A DNA stretch of 64,000 bases from Bdellovibrionales bacterium. Lineage in GTDB: Bacteria > Bdellovibrionota > UBA1018. The position numbers and the translations under genes are program-made. Below, in pieces: positions 43,387-53,577 of this stretch (the stretch's first letter is position 1; each line of letters opens with the position of its first letter). The notes below the pieces were generated by a model. The model made no database searches, was not told the origin of the DNA, and saw only the letters and a list, made by a program, of their open reading frames with translations. The stretch spans positions 146,422-210,421 of the forward strand of contig JAEUWC010000016.1 in the NCBI GenBank assembly GCA_016786465.1, written 5' to 3'.

Positions 43387-43572
43387 TTGCGAGCGCTTCT
43401 GATCGTTGGAATATTGACGCTTCAGGCGGTCGGCTGCGCCGGCAAAAAGGACAAAGGGCCTTTTCAAAGCTGTATTGAACGCTGTTCACGGATTGAAAAA
43501 CAGGATCCTAGTTCATCCTGCGTCCGCGACTGCGAAAAGATCTTCTTGCCCGGCCAGCACGGGTTTCCGTAG
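43387..43572 (+). CDS. small twin-Cx3C lipoprotein (about 61 aa)
   Basis: TTG 2 nt after the NrfD stop. MRALLIVGILTLQAVGC signal/lipobox, then SCIERCS and SCVRDCE (two Cx3C pairs). This is a short ORF and may be spurious. Confidence 0.35.
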   Translation: MRALLIVGILTLQAVGCAGKKDKGPFQSCIERCSRIEKQDPSSSCVRDCEKIFLPGQHGFP

Positions 43573-43619: not shown

Positions 43620-44558
43620 CTAAGGCTGAACCCACCAAATCGGTTCTTTGGGGGTCGAAACATTTCGAGCGTCGATTCGCATCCCAATGACCTTACCTTG
43701 GCGTTCAATTTCAAACCTGCCAGATGGATTGGCGACTTCTTCATCGATCCTTGCGCCGATCCATTTGAAAATCAGGTCGGGTTCGTAAAAGAAGACGCCA
43801 AACTGCGCTTCGCCGGATTCAGCCCAACGGCGGTTCTTTTTGCTGCGAATCAGTAAACTGAGCAAAGAAACTCGTTTGCCGGTCATCGGACCGCCGACCA
43901 GTTTGGCCGGAGCCGCGATATTCATGGACCAAGCGGCCTTCAAATCAGAAGTCAAAAGCCCCGCCAATTCGACCAAGCTAACACCAAACGCAGAACAGCC
44001 TGCACCTTCAGCGTGTCTTGGGCTGTTGGGCAAGCCGTACCGCGTGTAGACCTTGTTTTCTCGATATTCGGTCAAATAAGTCGCAAGCCTGCGGCAGGTG
44101 GATGCCGAAATATCGTAAGCAATGTAGCGCATATTCCCACCCTTCGATTTTTCGACCGCATTGTCGGTGTCGACTTCGTCAGTCGACTGCATTCGGCCTT
44201 GAAACGAATGAAAAAGCGCGCCCAGGCCGCCGCCTTTTAGCAGCAGGAAAGTTCTCGCTTCGGACTTTTTCGCGTCAGTCATTCCCGTTGCCTGGCGAAA
44301 CGCAGGTTCAGTCGCCGTCGCATCACAACTGACTTCAACGGCGACATGCCCCATGGGGTATCCGGAACGTCCGGTAAAGTTCTTTACAATGGTCCGCGCC
44401 AAGCGGTTTGGATCGCGCCAGTCGATCCCCGGACTGGAATAGGTGAAGATTTTCAGTTCATCACCAAAGGCGCCTCGAGCCTGTGAAATCTGAACGACAA
44501 GAAACGAAGCGAGCAATGGAAACCAAAACCTGGACGTCCTGACCAAGAATTTTTTCAT
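43620..44558 (-). CDS. hypothetical secreted protein
   Basis: 312 aa, signal peptide MKKFLVRTSRFWFPLLASFLVVQISQA. Last gene of a four-gene minus-strand cluster. Confidence 0.55.
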   Translation of the reverse strand: MKKFLVRTSRFWFPLLASFLVVQISQARGAFGDELKIFTYSSPGIDWRDPNRLARTIVKNFTGRSGYPMGHVAVEVSCDATATEPAFRQATGMTDAKKSEARTFLLLKGGGLGALFHSFQGRMQSTDEVDTDNAVEKSKGGNMRYIAYDISASTCRRLATYLTEYRENKVYTRYGLPNSPRHAEGAGCSAFGVSLVELAGLLTSDLKAAWSMNIAAPAKLVGGPMTGKRVSLLSLLIRSKKNRRWAESGEAQFGVFFYEPDLIFKWIGARIDEEVANPSGRFEIERQGKVIGMRIDARNVSTPKEPIWWVQP

Positions 44559-44613
44559 CCCTCTAGTCTAAGGTCAGTTTCTGAATTTCGCGGTGATTAA
44601 AATTTGACGCTGA

Positions 44614-47373
44614 CTATTTCGCGACCTGGAAGCGGACGCTTCCGGCAGGGCCCCATTTTACTCGATCTACCGAATAGCCCAGGTTCAAAAGGTAAAAGTC
44701 GCCCTTGGTCAAAAGTCCAAAAAGCTCGCGTTCCAAAACAGTGGGCGAAGTCGCCGAAAGCACCATTCGGTTCTTTCCTTGGACAAACTTTCCGGCGGTA
44801 TTATCGACCATCAATTCGCCTTCAACTTTGAACTTCTTCCAAACCGTTGACCGCGTCAGACGAAAGTAAAGAATCTGGGGTGTTTTCTTCAAATCGAAGG
44901 TGACTTCCAACTGATCCGGACCCAGGGCTTGGGTTTTGAAATCCGAAACGGTCAAGTGCGGATCGCCTTCGAAGCCCCCCGCCTGTCGTTCTAGCCCTAA
45001 CTGTTCATCCGTCAGATTGATGATTTGGTTGACCTGAAGGATGACATCCCCTCGTTCCTGAAGACGTCCAACCGAAGGCCCTTGCATCGTGTAAAAGTAG
45101 TCCACCTTTTCACCGGCCAATGCGATTGCCAGTACCTTCATCAACTGGGCGCCGCGGTGTCGGATCGAAAACATCTTGCCCATTTTTTCGGCGATGACTT
45201 CCGGGGGCAAGGTGACTCCGGTCAATGCTTTCCACTGCGCCAGGAAGTTCTTCATTTTCGTGACTTCCGAATCTTCCAGTTCGTCCGGGGGCGGCGCAGC
45301 CGACGGGAACTTAATGCCAAAAGCTTCTTCTACAATTTCAGTTTTCCTGGAATCCGGAATCGCGATGAACTTTTCAACCTGCGGCCGGTTGACGTTCAAC
45401 CCATAGTACAAGCTGAATCGCCCATACTTTGCGATCGGGCCTTTCTTGATTTTCTTCAGTTTGTCGGGAATTCCGTCCCCATCGGTGTCTTCCCAGACTT
45501 CGGTCAATGATTTCATCTTGGGCATTCGGGCCGGCAGCTGCGGGATTGCCGGCAGATTGCCCACAGCTGCGCGTAGATCTCGAAGGTAACGCTGCATTTC
45601 GCGACCGTTCGTCCGTGAATCCTGAACGGAAGCTTCAGCCATCAGGGTCAACGATTCAGGTTCTTTCTTTTGATAGGATTCCAGGTCCAACCCAACCGAA
45701 AAACGATGAAAGAAGTTTTCACGAAATCCAAAAATGGTCTTCCAGTCTTTGGTTGAAGTGTTTGCAAAGCGCAGAATGTGCTTCACGCCTGCGGGTAATT
45801 TGATTTCCGCGGCAAAAGTTTCTTCCTGACTGGATCGTCTGCGTTCGTGAAGAAAGGCCACTTCAAACTTTCCACTTCTCGATTTTTTGTCGTCCGTAGC
45901 GGTTCGATCGAAAATGCGCTCGACGACTGGGTGGCCCGATGGGTCTTTTACGCCTTCCAGCTTGCCGGCTTCGAAGAATGATCCAGCCAATGCGTCTTCA
46001 AAAGCACTGACGCCATCTGGGGTCGAAAGATTAAAGCGATAGCCGATGTCAAAAGTTCGCACGCTATCGCGATTGGCGGTCAGTTGAAAAGGCATCAATC
46101 TAAGCTTGGCCAAGCTGCCTAGGTCTGTCGAAATCGGCGAACCTTCAAAAACCATCACGCCTTCGATCAACTGAGCCTTGCTGGTCGCCCCCCCCACGCT
46201 CAGTCCGGTTCCCCTTCGTGTCAGCCTGGAAATTTTCACTTTGGCGAACTGGTCGTTTTCTTTCAAAACATAAACAACGTATTCACCGCGCAGGTACGTA
46301 CGAACATTGATTCCCACCGTGAAATCAACGAACTTGGGCAAGTTCAAGAATTGGAATCCGACGCCCGCATCCATTTCGACACCACCGAAACCGGTGTAGC
46401 CAAAAAGTTCGCCGTCAGCCATTCGGTTAAACGCGTCCTGAGTCAGCGGAATGCGGAACGGCAGCGAAACGCGTCGGAAAAGTTTGCTTAGCCGCGGACG
46501 AATCGAAGGATCCAACATTCCCGATGTCACGCTGGGGTCAAGGCGCGTGATCGAAGGATCGGCTGGCAAAGGCCCCGGTGATGCCGACGCCGACGGTGTA
46601 CTGGACGGGGATGGAACTGCCGAAGCAGTCCCCGATGATCCGCCAGTTCCTGCCGCCTGAGCGCGCCTTTGAGCGTTTTTTTCCTTTAAAGCTTTGTACC
46701 AGTTTGATCGCGTGACTTCTTCCGCAAGCTGCTGCGTGGTGGGAAGATTCTTATAACGCTTGGCTTGTACTTTTCGGATATTGACCCAAGACATCCCGCT
46801 GACTCCGCCAATGCTGAAGTTCATGTTTAAGTTCATCGGAATGACAGAACTAGGAATGCTGGTGTCCAAATAAATCACGGGAACTTTGGATTCGATTTGA
46901 AATCGGTCCACCACCGTCCACGTATTCAGAAGGTCGAAGTTATCGTAGATATCCCGGCGGGTATTGAAACGAACCCTTCCGCCCTTTTTTCCTACAGGAA
47001 TCGAAAGAAGTTCTAAATCCGTCAGCGAACGAAAAATCGAGTTCGTCAAAGAAAGGCTCAAGTCGTTGACGCCTTCGCCAAGCTTGTTCATCAGCTGGTT
47101 GGGCCAGGATTTAACCTGAACGCCACTGCTGGTCGTTACTGCGCGGGCCGAAATCCCTTCCGCGCCCAACTGTTTCATCACGTCCGTATCGAAGGGTTCT
47201 AACGATTCGTTCTGCCCCTCTGATTCCAAAAGTTCATCGGGTTGGGCATCTTGCTGAACATCTTCTACGAACTGCGCCGGCGCACGAGCCCCGTCCATCG
47301 GGGAACATCCCCCTGCCGGAAGCATCAAAAGAATCACGAAAAGAATAGGCGCCAAGACCCGAAACACCATCAA
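44614..47373 (-). CDS. large hypothetical lipoprotein with Ser/Pro/Thr-rich linker
   Basis: 919 aa, lipobox LPAGGC. Low-complexity segment AGTGGSSGTASAVPSPSSTPSASASPGPLPADPS around residues 250-290. Confidence 0.6.
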   Translation of the reverse strand: MMVFRVLAPILFVILLMLPAGGCSPMDGARAPAQFVEDVQQDAQPDELLESEGQNESLEPFDTDVMKQLGAEGISARAVTTSSGVQVKSWPNQLMNKLGEGVNDLSLSLTNSIFRSLTDLELLSIPVGKKGGRVRFNTRRDIYDNFDLLNTWTVVDRFQIESKVPVIYLDTSIPSSVIPMNLNMNFSIGGVSGMSWVNIRKVQAKRYKNLPTTQQLAEEVTRSNWYKALKEKNAQRRAQAAGTGGSSGTASAVPSPSSTPSASASPGPLPADPSITRLDPSVTSGMLDPSIRPRLSKLFRRVSLPFRIPLTQDAFNRMADGELFGYTGFGGVEMDAGVGFQFLNLPKFVDFTVGINVRTYLRGEYVVYVLKENDQFAKVKISRLTRRGTGLSVGGATSKAQLIEGVMVFEGSPISTDLGSLAKLRLMPFQLTANRDSVRTFDIGYRFNLSTPDGVSAFEDALAGSFFEAGKLEGVKDPSGHPVVERIFDRTATDDKKSRSGKFEVAFLHERRRSSQEETFAAEIKLPAGVKHILRFANTSTKDWKTIFGFRENFFHRFSVGLDLESYQKKEPESLTLMAEASVQDSRTNGREMQRYLRDLRAAVGNLPAIPQLPARMPKMKSLTEVWEDTDGDGIPDKLKKIKKGPIAKYGRFSLYYGLNVNRPQVEKFIAIPDSRKTEIVEEAFGIKFPSAAPPPDELEDSEVTKMKNFLAQWKALTGVTLPPEVIAEKMGKMFSIRHRGAQLMKVLAIALAGEKVDYFYTMQGPSVGRLQERGDVILQVNQIINLTDEQLGLERQAGGFEGDPHLTVSDFKTQALGPDQLEVTFDLKKTPQILYFRLTRSTVWKKFKVEGELMVDNTAGKFVQGKNRMVLSATSPTVLERELFGLLTKGDFYLLNLGYSVDRVKWGPAGSVRFQVAK

Positions 47374-47388
47374 ATCCGTATCGGAATT

Positions 47389-48684
47389 TTACGGGCTGTT
47401 ATTGCGGCTTTTCTGAGCAGTTTTTGCTTCGATCCAGCGCGAAAAATAGTCCGTCGAACGAAGCTGGTTCATCCATAGGATTTCCTGAATCCAATGGAAT
47501 GGTTCCGAGCCCTTTCGAACAGGGTGAAGCAGTTTTTGAAAATCTGACCGAAACCGAACGTCAATAGCTTGACTCGTATAAACCCGATTAAATGCGTCCA
47601 TGCTTCGTTGCGATCCCGTGCTCCACGCCTTCGCATCAGAAGTCATTTCTTGAATCGTCGCGACCCATTCTTGAAGATTTGCGCCCGGTACAAGACACGG
47701 GTTTTCGCTGCCTTCTGGCAGCACCCCTTCGGCACCGATTTCTGTAGTGATCACCGGTGTTCCCACTGACCAACTGTCCAAAATTTTTCCCTTTACGCCC
47801 GCACCAAACCGAATCGGGGCAACCAGGACGCGAACACTGGACAGCATCGCCCGAGAATCATCTGCCGGACCGAGAACCACGAAGCCTTCGCGAGGGTTGC
47901 TCCACGCCATTGCTTCCTTCGACGGATAGGCCCCAAAGATAGACAGGGTCGCATCGGGAATCTTTCGACGCACTTCGGGCCAAAGCTGAAACTTAAGGAA
48001 TCGAACCGCATCCAGATTCGGCGGATGCCTGAAATTCCCGATGAATCCCAATCCAATTCGCTCTGAAAAATCCTTTCGACATTCTGCCCGTTCGACGCCC
48101 AAATCGATGGGCAGTACAGAAATCTTTTTCGGATCGACCGCAAAAAAGCGCTCAAGTGCTAAGGCTTCAGAAAACGAAACCACCCAAGTCAAATCGCAAC
48201 GATGAATGGACGCCAATTCCCGGAAGGTGTCTTCGGTGAAAAGAAACTCACTCGGAATTGAAGGAATTTTTGAAATTGCTTGAAGGTCTAGACCTGAATC
48301 GTGGTTCAGATTTTTCAGCACCCATTTTTCGCGCGCACGGCGAACACTGTGCAGATCGCTGGTATCCAGGGCTGTCCAAGCGCCTGCGGCTTCTTCACGA
48401 ACGCGCGCACCAAATTGTTCTTCTACGATGAAGCGCTCAAAAACGACGCCATCGGGGCGAACTTCGCGAAGCCATTCGTTGAAACTGGAATCGTTCAGTT
48501 GAACTTCGCGGGTGATGATTCCCAGGCGATCCAGTTCGGCCTGAAATGAATTGGGTTTGCAGGCTGAACCCCAGAAAACGGTCGCCCCTGCCTTTAAAAA
48601 GTTTTTTGCTAGACCCAAAACGCGTACGCCCGCCGCCGAAGATGTCGGTTCTGGCCACACGGTGGTTAAAAACAAAACTCTCAT
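47389..48684 (-). CDS. glycosyltransferase, GT-B fold (GT4-like)
   Basis: 431 aa. N-terminus MRVLFLTTVWPEPTSSAAGVRV and a C-terminal GAGVKGKILDSWSVGTPVITT region, typical of the GT4 nucleotide-sugar binding domain. Confidence 0.65.
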   Translation of the reverse strand: MRVLFLTTVWPEPTSSAAGVRVLGLAKNFLKAGATVFWGSACKPNSFQAELDRLGIITREVQLNDSSFNEWLREVRPDGVVFERFIVEEQFGARVREEAAGAWTALDTSDLHSVRRAREKWVLKNLNHDSGLDLQAISKIPSIPSEFLFTEDTFRELASIHRCDLTWVVSFSEALALERFFAVDPKKISVLPIDLGVERAECRKDFSERIGLGFIGNFRHPPNLDAVRFLKFQLWPEVRRKIPDATLSIFGAYPSKEAMAWSNPREGFVVLGPADDSRAMLSSVRVLVAPIRFGAGVKGKILDSWSVGTPVITTEIGAEGVLPEGSENPCLVPGANLQEWVATIQEMTSDAKAWSTGSQRSMDAFNRVYTSQAIDVRFRSDFQKLLHPVRKGSEPFHWIQEILWMNQLRSTDYFSRWIEAKTAQKSRNNSP

Positions 48685-48693
48685 ACGAAAAAT

Positions 48694-49389
48694 CTAAAAG
48701 AAAAGTCGGACGCCCAACTGCGGCCCACCGCTGCCAGCCAAGCTGACTGCCGTCTTTTCAATTTCGCGAAAGTAATTTCCGTAAATCCGAAGAAACTTAA
48801 AATCGATAAATGCGCCGACTTCCGCCCGATACCCGCTAAACCGAAGCCCCGTCGAATTCGGCGTCGAATCCAAAAAGCTTCGATAAATTCCTTCGATGCC
48901 GAAATAGCGCGCAAAATAAACTGACATCCACCCACCCCATAAAGCATTTCGGTAACCCGAATTCTGCTTCACGCCCGCCTGAAGCGTCAGGTGCGTCCCC
49001 TGCATCTGATTCCCGAAAATTCGAAAATGAAAGATGCCATTCAATCGAAACTGATTTCCCGCCAGGACTTCGCGTGAAAATTCCAAACCAAAAGCGCTGG
49101 CGTACGCTACCAGTCGGTAGCTTAAACCTGTGATGTCGGGGTTTGACGCCATCGAATAATCCGTTGCCAGCGAAAATTCGAATGGGCTTGGGGTATGCAT
49201 GGACAACCAAAGGTCCATCCAACGCATCTTTTCACGGGTCTCAAGCCAATCGCTCAGGCTCCAACGGGACTTCGCCTTTTGTTCCTGCTTCTTCACAATA
49301 TTGAAGGTGTACGTTTCGTCGGCCCAAACTTCCGCGGCCGAAAGCGAAGCCATCGTCAACGCCGCCACTAACCCTAGAATTTTCTGCAT
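48694..49389 (-). CDS. outer-membrane beta-barrel protein (hypothetical)
   Basis: 231 aa. Signal peptide, alternating amphipathic strands, C-terminal aromatic residue (....GVRLFF). Confidence 0.55.
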   Translation of the reverse strand: MQKILGLVAALTMASLSAAEVWADETYTFNIVKKQEQKAKSRWSLSDWLETREKMRWMDLWLSMHTPSPFEFSLATDYSMASNPDITGLSYRLVAYASAFGLEFSREVLAGNQFRLNGIFHFRIFGNQMQGTHLTLQAGVKQNSGYRNALWGGWMSVYFARYFGIEGIYRSFLDSTPNSTGLRFSGYRAEVGAFIDFKFLRIYGNYFREIEKTAVSLAGSGGPQLGVRLFF

Positions 49390-49698
49390 GAACTCAGTCT
49401 AGAACAGGAGGTCCCAAAAAGACACCGGTCCCAAAGCGCCAGCCCTTCGTCGACCCCTAGTTCGGCACTGCTGCTTTGTTAGGTATTTGTAATTAAAGAC
49501 TTTATTGGATCTTGCCGCGCAGGTATTGGATGGCACGTCCCCTGCTGAATAGGGGTACATCAGGCTCAGGACGAGACTGTTTTTCGTTGTGCAGGGCGAG
49601 CCCATTTCAGCTCACCCAGGGACAGGAATTCAGGTTTGGCGGCCTGTAGCTCCTGTCGCAATACCAAACGTCCCGCCGAAAAACTAAGGGGTTTAGAG

Positions 49699-51783
49699 AT
49701 GAAATCCAAGATCTTGTTAGCATTAGGAGTGCTGTCAGCACCGACTGCAGCCAGCGCGCAATACCGATATTACGACGGACCTCCGGTCGACATTCACTTT
49801 GAATCGACCAAACCGGCCAAGTACGCCGTCTGCGATAAGTACCTTCAAGACACCACCGCACGCCGCTACGCCGCGTGTGAATTCGGACGCGACGAAGCTG
49901 AACGCATGGCCGTTCGCTTTGGCGGAGGAAACGGAAAAATTCAGGGCTACCTTCGCGGCTTTGCTTGGGGAATGCACAAGATGTCCGACGCGTATGAAAA
50001 CGACGCTTCTGAAATGATCGCCGGCGAAAAAATGGTCGGATCGATTGGATCGACCATGCAAGCCGGCTTAGACGCCGGGATCAGGGCCGGTCAACAGCAG
50101 GGTTCGCCCCGCGGTCTTTCTGATGCGATTGCCCGCTTTGAAGCCGTTGTGAACAAGGGCCTTCAACCTGATTCGAAGCTCATTGTTCCAACCGTCACCT
50201 ATGCCGGGGAAAAAGATGCTTATCAAAAATTCGTCGGACCGGTTCCGACTTCTCAACAGATCATCCAAAACGAAATCAAGCCGGGTGAACTTCAGATTTA
50301 CTCGACCTGGGATGATGTCTTCCTTGGAGAACGCAAGCCCCTGACCGTTTGGGATCTCTGGTTCTCGGACGGAGTCTACAAGTTCGAAAAAGCCTACTGG
50401 TATGACCAGTCATTGGCGATGGAAACCTGGTTCAAACGTCCGATCGATACTCGTCCGAAGTATGACCAGCTGAACATTCCAGCCCTGGTGGATATCCAAG
50501 GCCAGCAGGTCGACCTTCAGGCGGTCTTCCGCGACGCCTTCATCAGTTCGTATTCCTACTACGTGAACTACAACTTTTCGTCGCAGTTCAAAGTGGCCAT
50601 GGATGACGGAATGCTGGCTGGCCAGATGATTGGAACCCAAGTTGGAAAACGCGTCGCCCAGTACAAGGGACTGGTTCGCGCCTACAACGACAAGTTCCAG
50701 CAAAGTTCGCTTCAGACTTTCCAAGCGGCTTTTGCAAAGGCCTACACGGATTCGTTCAACACGACTTTTGCGGATTACAGCAACAATCCGAAACTTTCGA
50801 TTGAACTTTTGCAGGCAATTGGTGCCGACAATGACGGGATCCTTCAACCTGGTGAAGAAATTTCCTTGGAAATCAAGATTCGTAACTCGGGAGGAAAAGG
50901 TACTAATCTGACCATCGGCGCAGGTGGAAACATCATCGACGCAGTTCAGTCGACGGGAACCATTACCGCCCTTCAGGAAAAGACGATCACCACCGGAATC
51001 CTGGCTAAGATCGATCCTAGATTGAAGACCCGGAATTCCGCACGAATTCTAGTGACCATCAACGGCCTGACCGACGAAATCAATCGCACGGTGAATCGTA
51101 TGATGCAGCTAGCATCCACCAAGCAGACCTTGGATCTTCTGAACGGTTCGGGATCCTTGATCGTGCAGGTGATCAACACTTCAACCGTTCGTTCCCCAAG
51201 CAACGTGACTGCAACGCTACAGATCAATGGTCGCGATGTGGAAACTCAGAACTTGGGATTGGTTTCGGCCGGAGCAACGCAGGAAACTGCGCTGAACTTC
51301 ACCCAAATCGACCCACTGGATCTGATTCATTCGCAAATCAAAGCCAGTGTGATCCTAAGAATGGGAACCTTGAATTCGGACCAGACATCTGAAGTCATTG
51401 CCATCGGCGACGCAAACGAAGCCCTGGTCGACTACTTCAACGGACTGGCGAACAACAAGGCCTTCACCCCAATTCAAAAGGGCCGCGATCACCAGATCGA
51501 CCTGGTTTCTGAAGAATTGGTCAGTGAAAACAACCAGGAAACTCGCGAACTGAAGAAAGGCAAGAACCAGTTCAAGAAGAATCCTGATTCAACGATCATC
51601 GGTGATTTGGTGAAAACCTTCGAAACCAACGTTCAGACGTCAGATGCGAAGAATCGCTACAACACCTTGGCAAAAGCCTTGTGGCCTGCACGCAAGAACC
51701 TAAAGAACTTCTTGTTCTTCGGCGGAAAGCGCAAAAGCTACGAAAAGCTGGTTCGCCGAATTGCTCAGTCTGACTTGAAATAA
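49699..51783 (+). CDS. hypothetical secreted protein
   Basis: SD AAGGGG before MKSKILLALGVLSAPTAASA. About 694 aa, no recognised domain. Followed by a rho-independent terminator. Confidence 0.6.
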   Translation: MKSKILLALGVLSAPTAASAQYRYYDGPPVDIHFESTKPAKYAVCDKYLQDTTARRYAACEFGRDEAERMAVRFGGGNGKIQGYLRGFAWGMHKMSDAYENDASEMIAGEKMVGSIGSTMQAGLDAGIRAGQQQGSPRGLSDAIARFEAVVNKGLQPDSKLIVPTVTYAGEKDAYQKFVGPVPTSQQIIQNEIKPGELQIYSTWDDVFLGERKPLTVWDLWFSDGVYKFEKAYWYDQSLAMETWFKRPIDTRPKYDQLNIPALVDIQGQQVDLQAVFRDAFISSYSYYVNYNFSSQFKVAMDDGMLAGQMIGTQVGKRVAQYKGLVRAYNDKFQQSSLQTFQAAFAKAYTDSFNTTFADYSNNPKLSIELLQAIGADNDGILQPGEEISLEIKIRNSGGKGTNLTIGAGGNIIDAVQSTGTITALQEKTITTGILAKIDPRLKTRNSARILVTINGLTDEINRTVNRMMQLASTKQTLDLLNGSGSLIVQVINTSTVRSPSNVTATLQINGRDVETQNLGLVSAGATQETALNFTQIDPLDLIHSQIKASVILRMGTLNSDQTSEVIAIGDANEALVDYFNGLANNKAFTPIQKGRDHQIDLVSEELVSENNQETRELKKGKNQFKKNPDSTIIGDLVKTFETNVQTSDAKNRYNTLAKALWPARKNLKNFLFFGGKRKSYEKLVRRIAQSDLK

Positions 51784-51873: not shown

Positions 51874-52779
51874 TTGATGCCCACCCTTGCCTTTGCAACC
51901 GATAGCCGCCACCCGAACGGCGGCGACGATGATACGGATCTTCGCGCTTGCCTGACTGAAGCAGGGATTTCGGTAGAACTGCCCGTTTGGGATGACCCTA
52001 ATATCGACTGGAAGAAATACGATCTGATTCTTCCAAGGTCGATCTGGGATTACCCATCCAAGCACCCGGCCTTTCTGACTTGGCTTGAAAGGTTGAAACG
52101 CTTGGGCGCACCTGTTCAGAATCCAACGCCCCTTCTGGCGTGGAATTCGAATAAAGTTTACTTGAAGGAACTGTCTGAAGCAGGGGTCCCTGTTTTGAAA
52201 ACCCGATGGGAAGCCCCGAAATCGAAGTCGGATCTAGAAGAAATCGTCGGCACGCTTTCCAACCAGCACGAATGGATTCTGAAACCTTCGGTTTCATCGG
52301 GCGCGGACTTGACCCTGCGCTATCACCCTGCCCAGACAGGAAGCGCCAAACCAGTTCAAGGTTGGATAAATTCTTGGGTCGGTGAAAAACTGAATCAGAA
52401 AGACTGTCTTCTTATGATTCAGCGTTTCGAAAAAGAAATCCTGAAATCCGGAGAAACCTCGCTTCTGTACTTTGGGGGAATTTTTCAATACGCAATTCGA
52501 AAGCAAGCCCAGGGCGAAGACTTCAGAACGCAGCCCAACTTTGGTGCAAAACTGACCCAAGTCAAAGCCACAGACGATCAGTTAAATGTCGGAAATCAAG
52601 TATTGAAACACGTTCATCGGATCGACAAGACCCTTTATGCACGAGTGGATCTGATTCAATCCGAAGGAAAACCCGCCTGCATTGAAGCAGAACTGGTCGA
52701 ACCCAATCTTTTTCTTCGTTACACCGATTCCAAACAGAACCATCTGGCGTTGGCAGCGGAAATCAAGAAACTAGTTTAA
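51874..52779 (+). CDS. ATP-grasp domain protein (GshB/RimK-like)
   Basis: 301 aa with a small N-terminal domain then ATP-grasp-like pattern (KVYLKEL..GVPVLKT, WILKPSVSSGADL, ARVDLIQSEG.PACIEAELVEPNL). Confidence 0.5.
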   Translation: MMPTLAFATDSRHPNGGDDDTDLRACLTEAGISVELPVWDDPNIDWKKYDLILPRSIWDYPSKHPAFLTWLERLKRLGAPVQNPTPLLAWNSNKVYLKELSEAGVPVLKTRWEAPKSKSDLEEIVGTLSNQHEWILKPSVSSGADLTLRYHPAQTGSAKPVQGWINSWVGEKLNQKDCLLMIQRFEKEILKSGETSLLYFGGIFQYAIRKQAQGEDFRTQPNFGAKLTQVKATDDQLNVGNQVLKHVHRIDKTLYARVDLIQSEGKPACIEAELVEPNLFLRYTDSKQNHLALAAEIKKLV

Positions 52780-53577
52780 ACGGATCTGAACCCCAAGCCC
52801 GGTACTGCTTCCTGCAAGAATCGGAAACAGTTGATAGCGTGCAACGCCTTCGTCATCCTTCTGGCCCCACTGCCCATCCAAACCAAATGCGTAACCCAAC
52901 CCCAACGTCGCACCGAAAAGTACGTCATGAAGGTAGTGAGCATTATCATTCATCCTGGAAAACCCGATAAAGCTGGCAACCGCGAAAGATCCCACCCCCC
53001 AAGCAATGCCATGATTTCGATAGATGACACCTGCCATGACAAACGCATTTGAAGCATGACCACTTGGAAAAGAACCGAAGTCTCCGCCTCGACGCGGACG
53101 CTCTTCCATGTGAAGCGCTTTCAGTCCCTGCGTCAGCAAAGAAGTGTAGATCGAAGCGCGCGCCATCAAGATCGCCTTGCCATAGGCCGCGGAATCGCCC
53201 GAAATCCATCCATAAAGTGAAACACCTGCTACATAGGCGACGTTGGATCGCCAGAATCCCAGCTGGTAACCGATGTTCGAGGCTTCCCCCAGTGGGCGGC
53301 TTTCGGCGATGTCTTTCTGAAACGAAGTTTTACTTAAGGGGTACGTGGTCAGCGAAAGCACGGTTCCGCCGATCATCAATCGGGGTTTACGGATCGGCGC
53401 AATCAGATCGCGCCCTAGGTTTTCAAGCTGCGTGGAAACATCACCCGCCTGGGATGACGCCGGAAAAACCAGCCCAACGATCAGAAGAAGTTTAAGGCGA
53501 ATCAGAAGGGACCTGCGAAGGAAGTGGAGACGGGACCGGAGTCTCGGCCGCTTCTGCTTCAGGAACCCCTTTTTCAA
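52771..53577 (-). CDS. PAP2-superfamily phosphatase (membrane/secreted)
   Basis: PAP2 motifs PSGHASNAF and SRMNDNAHYLHDVLFG (SRx5Hx3D). Signal/TM at the N-terminus. Confidence 0.75.
   Translation of the reverse strand: MKKGFLKQKRPRLRSRLHFLRRSLLIRLKLLLIVGLVFPASSQAGDVSTQLENLGRDLIAPIRKPRLMIGGTVLSLTTYPLSKTSFQKDIAESRPLGEASNIGYQLGFWRSNVAYVAGVSLYGWISGDSAAYGKAILMARASIYTSLLTQGLKALHMEERPRRGGDFGSFPSGHASNAFVMAGVIYRNHGIAWGVGSFAVASFIGFSRMNDNAHYLHDVLFGATLGLGYAFGLDGQWGQKDDEGVARYQLFPILAGSSTGLGVQIRLN

Follow-up and report, generated by a model that had tools for sequence, protein, structure and literature searches.

A clade-restricted envelope gene cluster pairing a GT4-type glycosyltransferase with a large predicted lipoprotein in a Bdellovibrionales genome

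We analyzed a window of 64,000 nucleotides (nt) from a metagenome-assembled genome (MAG) annotated as 'Bdellovibrionales bacterium' (GCA_016786465.1, contig JAEUWC010000016.1, positions 146,422 to 210,421), focusing on four minus-strand genes with the locus tags JNL01_08150 to 08165. In the order of their orientation, and in positions of the window, these open reading frames (ORFs) encode a small protein of 231 amino acids (aa) resembling an outer-membrane β-barrel (OMP231, 48694–49389), a glycosyltransferase of 431 aa with the Pfam domain Glyco_trans_1_4 (GT, 47389–48684), a β-rich lipoprotein of 919 aa matched by no Pfam model (F919, 44614–47373) and an exported protein of 312 aa with a putative permuted NlpC/P60 fold (C312, 43620–44558). 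Both the coordinates and the gaps of 9, 15 and 55 nt, from which an earlier note made on the sequence alone had derived a single four-gene operon, were found exactly as it described them; the gap between GT and F919 grows to 18 nt with the start codon of the 918-aa NCBI annotation, which is the next ATG, one codon further downstream. All four ORFs are real genes, since conserved homologues exist for each of them. The region represents a clade-restricted envelope gene cluster, and its conserved core is the GT gene followed by a lipoprotein-type F919 gene, with OMP231 and C312 as accessory neighbors.

The pairing of GT and F919 recurs at nine loci from six distinct lineages (the window, L001–L004, L082, L087, L120 and L124), where the GT gene lies directly upstream of F919 on the same strand. 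Three of these loci (L082, L087 and L120) were added by a metagenome scan for the GT and belong to the same lineages as earlier loci. Together, the six lineages cover F919 identities of 33–70%, a GC content of 51–66%, three flanking contexts and three deep groups. In L001, F919 is 70% identical, the four genes are co-oriented and the flanks are those of the window. In L002, L003 and L004, with F919 identities of 38–40%, the order OMP231-GT-F919 is combined with a convergent C312 homologue on the opposite strand; in L002 and L003, stop codons overlap the start codons that follow. An OMP231 gene also precedes GT in the window, L001, L082, L087 and L120, and the C312 homologue is on the opposite strand in L082 and L087 as well; counted by lineage, C312 is convergent in three, missing in one, and flanks the lipoprotein-type F919 in five of the six. 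The nearest outgroup, L124 (F919 homologue P0036, 33–38% identity, GC 0.66), has the lipobox and a GT of the same family directly upstream, separated by 80 nt; its 6.3-kb contig carries neither OMP231 nor C312, and its neighbors differ. A four-gene operon conserved among relatives, as proposed before, was therefore not recovered: all four genes are adjacent and co-oriented only in the window and in L001. What persists across the six lineages, which are all those found to carry the lipoprotein-type F919, is the GT–F919 pair, whereas OMP231 and C312 are not always kept.

Gene order of this kind could simply be inherited within one narrow clade of uncultured Bdellovibrionales, with a housekeeping GT, a paralogous secreted predator protein, a small outer-membrane protein and a secreted hydrolase acting independently of one another. 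Several observations fit such a lack of coupling. Each of the four families is mostly found elsewhere without the other three, the C312 gene switches strand, the linked GTs are not robustly monophyletic, and a flanking synteny of NrfD, the secreted-protein gene X715 and a DcsG_N-like gene is common to the window, L001 and L002, indicating that these genomes are not fully scrambled. We nevertheless regard mere inheritance as rather unlikely. The adjacency persists at 33–40% identity, a divergence as deep as that separating phyla in the GT family, and in three flanking contexts at a GC content of 0.52–0.66; the intergenic distances amount to 0–80 nt, with coding overlap in two lineages; and the lipobox and linker traits of F919 co-vary with GT linkage.

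These traits concern both the membrane anchor and the domain structure of F919. Its signal peptide and lipobox (residues 1–23, 47305–47373, minus strand) end in ...LPAGG-C23, a conserved cysteine that is the only one in the protein. In six of six GT-linked homologues, a cysteine closes the hydrophobic region of the signal peptide and is the sole cysteine of a protein of 900–1000 aa, so the lipidation claimed for the 919-aa protein is well supported. The corresponding motifs in the relatives read FAAC, VASC, SQGC, MQSC and AASC; the residues at −3 to −1 of the window protein (A-G-G) are non-canonical for a lipobox. Across the family, only seven of 133 aligned members have a lipobox-type N-terminus, most others possess ordinary signal peptides, and the combination of lipobox and sole cysteine is confined to the GT-linked set plus P0161.

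The second trait is an interdomain linker rich in Ser, Pro and Thr. The string that had drawn attention to the protein, AGTGGSSGTASAVPSPSSTPSASASPGPLPADPS, is indeed present at residues 241–274 (46552–46653, minus strand) and, as read from the sequence, represents a candidate O-glycosylation region; in the AF2 model of F919 it has a predicted local distance difference test (pLDDT) value below 50. For residues 226–287 of F919, GT-linked proteins were compared with 127 other family members. The GT-linked linkers contain 17–27 Ser, Thr or Pro residues against a median of 6, a count of at least 17 being reached by only four of the 127, and they are longer (52–81 aa versus a median of 34) and less charged. 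Mann–Whitney tests gave p values of ~0.002 to 0.006, a statistic that ignores phylogeny. Likewise, the best 30-residue window holds 13–20 of these residues in the linked set and 9–16 in 30 loci verified to be without GT. As judged from these alignments, the GT-linked F919 proteins are a derived subtype, set apart by a lipobox holding the only cysteine and by a long Ser/Thr/Pro-rich linker.

F919 itself belongs to a large family. While a word-indexed homology search gave five homologues, whose contigs carry the cluster, an exhaustive profile search returned full-length matches in 271 clusters (50% identity), of which 157 had E < 1e-30. Scanning the species genomes of GTDB yielded 30 loci, all in Bdellovibrionota (Bacteriovoracaceae, Oligoflexia, Bdellovibrionales, Bacteriovorax stolpii and Bdellovibrio sp.). 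At none of these 30 loci, which encode non-lipoprotein relatives, was a homologue of GT, OMP231, C312 or X715 found within 6 kb, and no neighbor is shared across them. In some Bdellovibrionota MAGs, two paralogues of F919 are encoded at loci unrelated to each other (L017 and L031; L029 and L033), and the family gives the impression of large secreted proteins that have multiplied by paralogy in predatory bacteria. Even with family profiles, no sequence match to F919 was obtained in Pfam, NCBIfam or PDB. The AF2 model, built from five sequences, is poor (pLDDT 46.7), with many β-strands of 20–24 residues, and a test of hydrophobicity versus conservation did not tell a membrane barrel from a soluble β fold; for these two reasons, a barrel in F919 is a lead only.

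The second gene had been proposed to encode a GT4-type glycosyltransferase, which was borne out by a match to Pfam PF13692 (Glyco_trans_1_4) at residues 212–350 (E = 3.3e-19, 70 bits, cutoff 27) and agrees with the NCBI name 'glycosyltransferase family 4 protein'. No signal peptide or transmembrane segment is present, and the protein is thus predicted to be a cytoplasmic GT4-type (GT-B) enzyme. Its N-terminal 200 aa are kept throughout the family and matched by no Pfam model. The motifs VWPEPTSSAAG and RFxxEEQF and the C-terminal tail LRSTxYFSRWIE of the window protein correspond to a family consensus of ~410 aa with VWPEPxSSAAG, RFxxEEQF and the conserved tail STxYxSxWIExK. The best NCBIfam match, TIGR03087 (PEP-CTERM-type GT), scores far below its cutoff. 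Orthology to BshA, sucrose-phosphate synthase or the PEP-CTERM enzyme stp1 was rejected, all scores being far below the cutoffs, and sequence searches gave no relative of solved structure. In metagenomes, at least 398 full-length relatives share 34–43% identity, including the conserved C-terminal tail, and one family member is annotated in Cycloclasticus. Judged by its sequence, the GT has nothing unusual within its family, a widespread and unnamed group of stand-alone glycosyltransferases. The neighborhoods of the best 80 loci among these relatives (L044–L123) consisted of housekeeping genes without a functional clue. For example, 31 of the 80 have a divergent MiaE-like gene upstream, HscA and dihydroorotase genes also occur, and a paralogue of EF-G is found directly upstream in eight (Cycloclasticus-like).

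Among the readings that we considered, we rank first, with a probability of about one in three, that the GT glycosylates the F919 lipoprotein before its export. The cytoplasmic enzyme would use a nucleotide sugar to O-glycosylate Ser and Thr residues in the disordered linker of the F919 precursor. This step would precede Sec export, lipidation and Lol sorting, and the glycosylated linker would then protect or extend F919 at the surface or in the periplasm. This reading was placed first because it fits both the persistent GT–F919 pairing and the derived linker, and because it is topologically possible. It also draws on analogy: in the systems AIDA-I/Aah, TibA/TibC, HMW1/HMW1C, Sdr/SdgB and SRRP/GtfA (SRRP, serine-rich repeat protein), a GT encoded next to a Sec-exported surface protein glycosylates it in the cytoplasm. 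Adjacency and co-conservation, which mark such protein O-glycosyltransferase systems, were found here at nine loci from six lineages for GT and F919, and at 0 of 30 loci for the non-lipoprotein relatives. A literature search on protein glycosylation in Bdellovibrio returned nothing relevant. The earlier note had gone further and envisaged a surface-protein modification or display module formed by all four genes. The tight packing, the persistent pair and the unusual linker speak for that idea; as a unit of four genes, the cluster is not conserved.

A number of points weigh against glycosylation of F919 by the GT. That the protein is glycosylated at all is something we infer, and Ser/Pro-rich linkers are frequent in lipoproteins that are not glycosylated. 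Two of the GT-linked proteins, P0003 and P0036, have moderate linkers, with 14 and 13 Ser, Thr or Pro residues in their best 30-aa windows. Furthermore, the GT-linked F919 proteins form one clade, and the correlations of linker and lipobox with GT linkage therefore amount to one or few evolutionary events. On the side of the enzyme, 77 of the best 80 GT loci lie amid housekeeping genes without the cluster, and stand-alone relatives sit in Bacteroidota-like and gammaproteobacterial contigs without F919. Since the GT family is widespread without F919, the family-wide acceptor cannot be F919. In a neighbor-joining tree, monophyly of the F919-linked GTs appeared in only 3–4 of 50 bootstraps, which is weak. 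Finally, of the NCBIfam models for known protein O-glycosyltransferases, only that of SdgA gave a match, in the C-terminal domain and at E = 0.0016 (17 bits, cutoff 800).

The breadth of the GT family, whose members mostly stand alone without F919, points to a generic acceptor. It is therefore conceivable that the enzyme makes a non-protein glycoconjugate, such as a glycolipid, a lipopolysaccharide-related sugar or a small polysaccharide, with F919 as a co-expressed and possibly barrel-containing envelope partner that binds, anchors or exports the product, while OMP231 and C312 aid outer-membrane lipid remodeling. Lipids or sugars are the usual acceptors of GT4 enzymes, and a gene for a PAP2 phosphatase is located at a distance of 3.4 kb. 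In addition, the characterized members of the fold group to which C312 may belong target lipids (PMC3142127, PMC12994826). We consider this alternative doubtful but worth serious attention. No gene for a flippase, polymerase, Wza/Wzc-like protein, initiating transferase, sugar-nucleotide enzyme or oligosaccharyltransferase (OTase, Wzy_C) was found within 10 kb of the cluster, the model in which a barrel might be seen has low confidence (pLDDT 46.7), the test of hydrophobicity versus conservation did not decide for or against a membrane barrel, and F919 relatives generally work without an adjacent GT. A locally encoded general glycosylation system of the PglL type was rejected as well, as neither an OTase nor a flippase gene occurs within the same 10 kb.

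Besides GT and F919, the accessory gene products offer some clues. C312 had been described as a secreted protein; it is exported, but its fold appears enzyme-like, so that it is not merely secreted. The statement that none of the envelope proteins has a recognizable domain thus holds for sequence profiles, which gave no matches, and fails for C312 at the level of the fold. Its AF2 model (pLDDT 79, predicted template modeling score 0.80) probably represents a permuted NlpC/P60 (papain-like) fold. His71 (44346–44348) and Cys188 (43995–43997, both minus strand) are invariant in nine sequences and occur in permuted order, His before Cys; the same motifs are present in the 435-aa C312 homologue of L002. 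With these residues as catalytic candidates, C312 is a putative cysteine hydrolase or acyltransferase. None of nine family members had a Pfam match at E ≤ 10, there was no relevant PDB profile match, and a Foldseek search of C312 against PDB found nothing.

Characterized permuted NlpC/P60 enzymes are lipid-directed, including LRAT/PLAAT and Tox-Act1; TseH showed phospholipase activity in one assay, and YiiX was co-crystallized with a fatty acid (PMC7387801, PMC3142127, PMC12994826). C312 has no sequence-profile match to TseH (DUF6695), YiiX/YaeF, LRAT/PLAAT, Tox-Act1, LnsA or Lnb, and its ~280 mature residues exceed their cores of 120–190 aa. This fold group includes two independent lipoprotein N-acyltransferases, namely LnsA (PMC7387801) and, as cited in PMC12994826, Lnb/DUF4105. 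One could imagine a module for lipoprotein tailoring: the GT would glycosylate the linker, C312 would re-acylate or de-acylate the F919 lipid anchor in an LnsA- or Lnb-like manner, and OMP231 would aid surface exposure. The export of C312, its fold with the invariant His-Cys pair and the position of its homologues beside the lipoprotein-type F919 in five of six lineages would be in line with this. Nonetheless, we consider such a module very unlikely: C312 relatives are found by themselves in unrelated settings, in two cases next to cell-wall genes, the L124 contig has neither C312 nor OMP231, the C312 fold is confirmed by neither Foldseek nor sequence profiles, OMP231 is unlike Slam-type translocators, and nothing points to the organism being without Lnt.

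The C312 family is found alone in L005–L007. In L006 (8001–10159), two C312-family genes lie tail to tail beside genes for a penicillin-binding-protein-type transglycosylase, a LysM polysaccharide deacetylase and a Tricorn-like protease, and the C312 homologue of L005 is near an SLT-LysM gene. These cell-wall contexts would fit a peptidoglycan-directed rather than a lipid-directed role of C312.

For OMP231, the proposed outer-membrane barrel was supported by a signal peptide, a C-terminal β-signal and strands with dyad repeats, but not by homology to a known outer-membrane protein family. The mature protein is 17% aromatic and lacks cysteine, it ends in ...GVRLFF, and [FY]F terminates 20 of 21 family members. 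Windows of alternating hydrophobicity numbered 52, compared with 21.9 ± 8.6 in shuffled sequences (maximum 46 in 500). No Pfam match was found for the family (the best, KdgM, had E = 0.1 in one of 21 members), nor was there a PDB sequence match. Taken together, these features make a small outer-membrane β-barrel plausible. The best-conserved part is located outside the putative barrel, in a polar and aromatic N-terminal segment of ~45 aa (residues ~24–72, 49200–49320) reading KKQExK..RWSLSDWLETRxxMRxMDLWLxxHxPSPxEF. Invariant or nearly invariant residues in it (K, W, D, H, P and E) hint that the segment has a specific function in binding or catalysis. A Slam-like translocation function was rejected, since OMP231 is too small, has no tetratricopeptide repeats or DUF560 and shows no similarity to Slam-type translocators.

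The OMP231 family also occurs alone, without GT and F919, in L009, L011 and L012. In L011 (5037–9726), the homologue lies downstream of genes for an M48 peptidase and a radical-SAM protein, and an M48 peptidase gene is found directly upstream of OMP231-GT-F919 in L002, L003 and L087. The comparison of these contexts suggests that GT-F919 was inserted beside a pre-existing OMP231 locus or lost from it. A self-contained unit that tailors and displays one surface lipoprotein, made up of the GT4 enzyme, C312 for anchor remodeling and OMP231 as a dedicated small barrel, is a long shot that we regard as extremely improbable. If it existed, predatory bacteria would possess a lipoprotein maturation system of a new, substrate-specific kind.

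Regarding transcription and translation signals, neither of the two short gaps (9 and 15 nt) contains a Shine-Dalgarno-like sequence, while AGAGGG is located 5 nt before the ATG of C312 within the 55-nt gap. Scans of the region for consensus promoters and terminators gave counts equal to chance expectation, and a single transcript is therefore neither supported nor refuted by them. One terminator-like hairpin, a candidate only in view of these counts, follows ~100 nt past the last gene (43500–43521, minus strand). Upstream of the four genes, only one gap exceeds 60 nt, the divergent intergenic region between OMP231 and X715 (49390–49698). It is likely the promoter region of the cluster; a scan for sigma-70 promoters gave no convincing match in it. 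Another terminator-like hairpin with a T-run (49421–49440, minus strand) lies ~30 nt upstream of the OMP231 start in the presumed 5′ leader and may be due to chance or act as an attenuator.

The divergent ORF X715 (49636–51783, plus strand), with a probable true start at ATG 49699, encodes a secreted protein of ~694 aa (MKSKILLALGVLSAPTAASA...) with only weak CARDB/DUF7932-like matches; in L001 a homologue adjoins the cluster, and in L002 and L087 one is located at a distance of ~4 kb. It is followed by an ATP-grasp gene (51874–52779, plus strand), DcsG_N-like by synteny with L001, which converges with the PAP2 phosphatase gene (52771–53577, minus strand), the two ends overlapping by 9 nt. L001 has both of them conserved in the vicinity of the cluster.

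If the GT does glycosylate F919, the pair would be the first dedicated cytoplasmic protein O-glycosyltransferase with its lipoprotein substrate in Bdellovibrionota and would provide a first function for a widespread, unstudied GT4 sub-family. Independent of the mechanism, the analysis defines three protein families without a Pfam model: secreted or outer-membrane proteins of 800–1000 aa that are specific to predatory Bdellovibrionota and often paralogous (the 271 clusters of F919), the small OMP-like proteins, and the proteins with a permuted NlpC/P60-like fold. All three are candidates for functions in the envelope and in the interaction with prey. The practical value is limited at present, because every carrier found is an uncultured MAG or a metagenome contig.

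Several known systems resemble the GT–F919 arrangement in part. In Aah-AIDA-I and TibC-TibA, both with heptosyltransferases, and in HMW1C-HMW1, the substrate is modified on Ser/Thr (or Asn) before export. As in the window, a cytoplasmic GT gene adjoins the gene of a Sec-exported surface protein, which is large, β-rich and associated with the outer membrane. In contrast, Aah, TibC and HMW1C belong to the BAHT or GT41 families, to which the GT4-like enzyme of the window has no detectable similarity; their partners are autotransporters or a two-partner secretion exoprotein, whereas F919, the putative substrate, is a lipoprotein. A second group comprises SdgA/SdgB and GtfA/GtfB, GT4-type protein O-glycosyltransferases of Gram-positive bacteria that modify their substrates in the cytoplasm. 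Here, too, the gene of a GT4/GT-B enzyme adjoins that of a surface protein, and this protein contains a low-complexity segment rich in Ser. The F919 linker is a mixed Ser/Thr/Pro/Ala/Gly stretch of 34–60 aa, in contrast to the long SD or serine-rich repeats of Sdr proteins and SRRPs, and the organism of the window is Gram-negative, with no accessory Sec genes nearby.

Acceptors of the PglL-type OTases of Neisseria, Burkholderia and Acinetobacter are often lipoproteins with Ser/Ala/Pro-rich linkers, and GT4 enzymes contribute to building the lipid-linked glycan. F919 is likewise a lipoprotein with a low-complexity linker, and its neighbor a GT4 enzyme; however, the GT genes of PglL-type systems are not located beside individual acceptor genes, and the window locus is without an OTase, flippase or initiating transferase. 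OMP231, finally, resembles the class of OmpX, OmpW, PagP and PagL, small outer-membrane barrels of 8–10 strands, in its size, signal peptide, aromatic C-terminal β-signal and dyad-repeat strands, and its N-terminal helix-like segment recalls PagP. It shares no sequence similarity with these proteins, and its conserved polar N-terminal segment is without a known counterpart. Viewed against these systems, it is plausible that the cluster represents a new variant of the arrangement in which a dedicated glycosyltransferase is encoded with its cognate surface protein, built from undescribed families.

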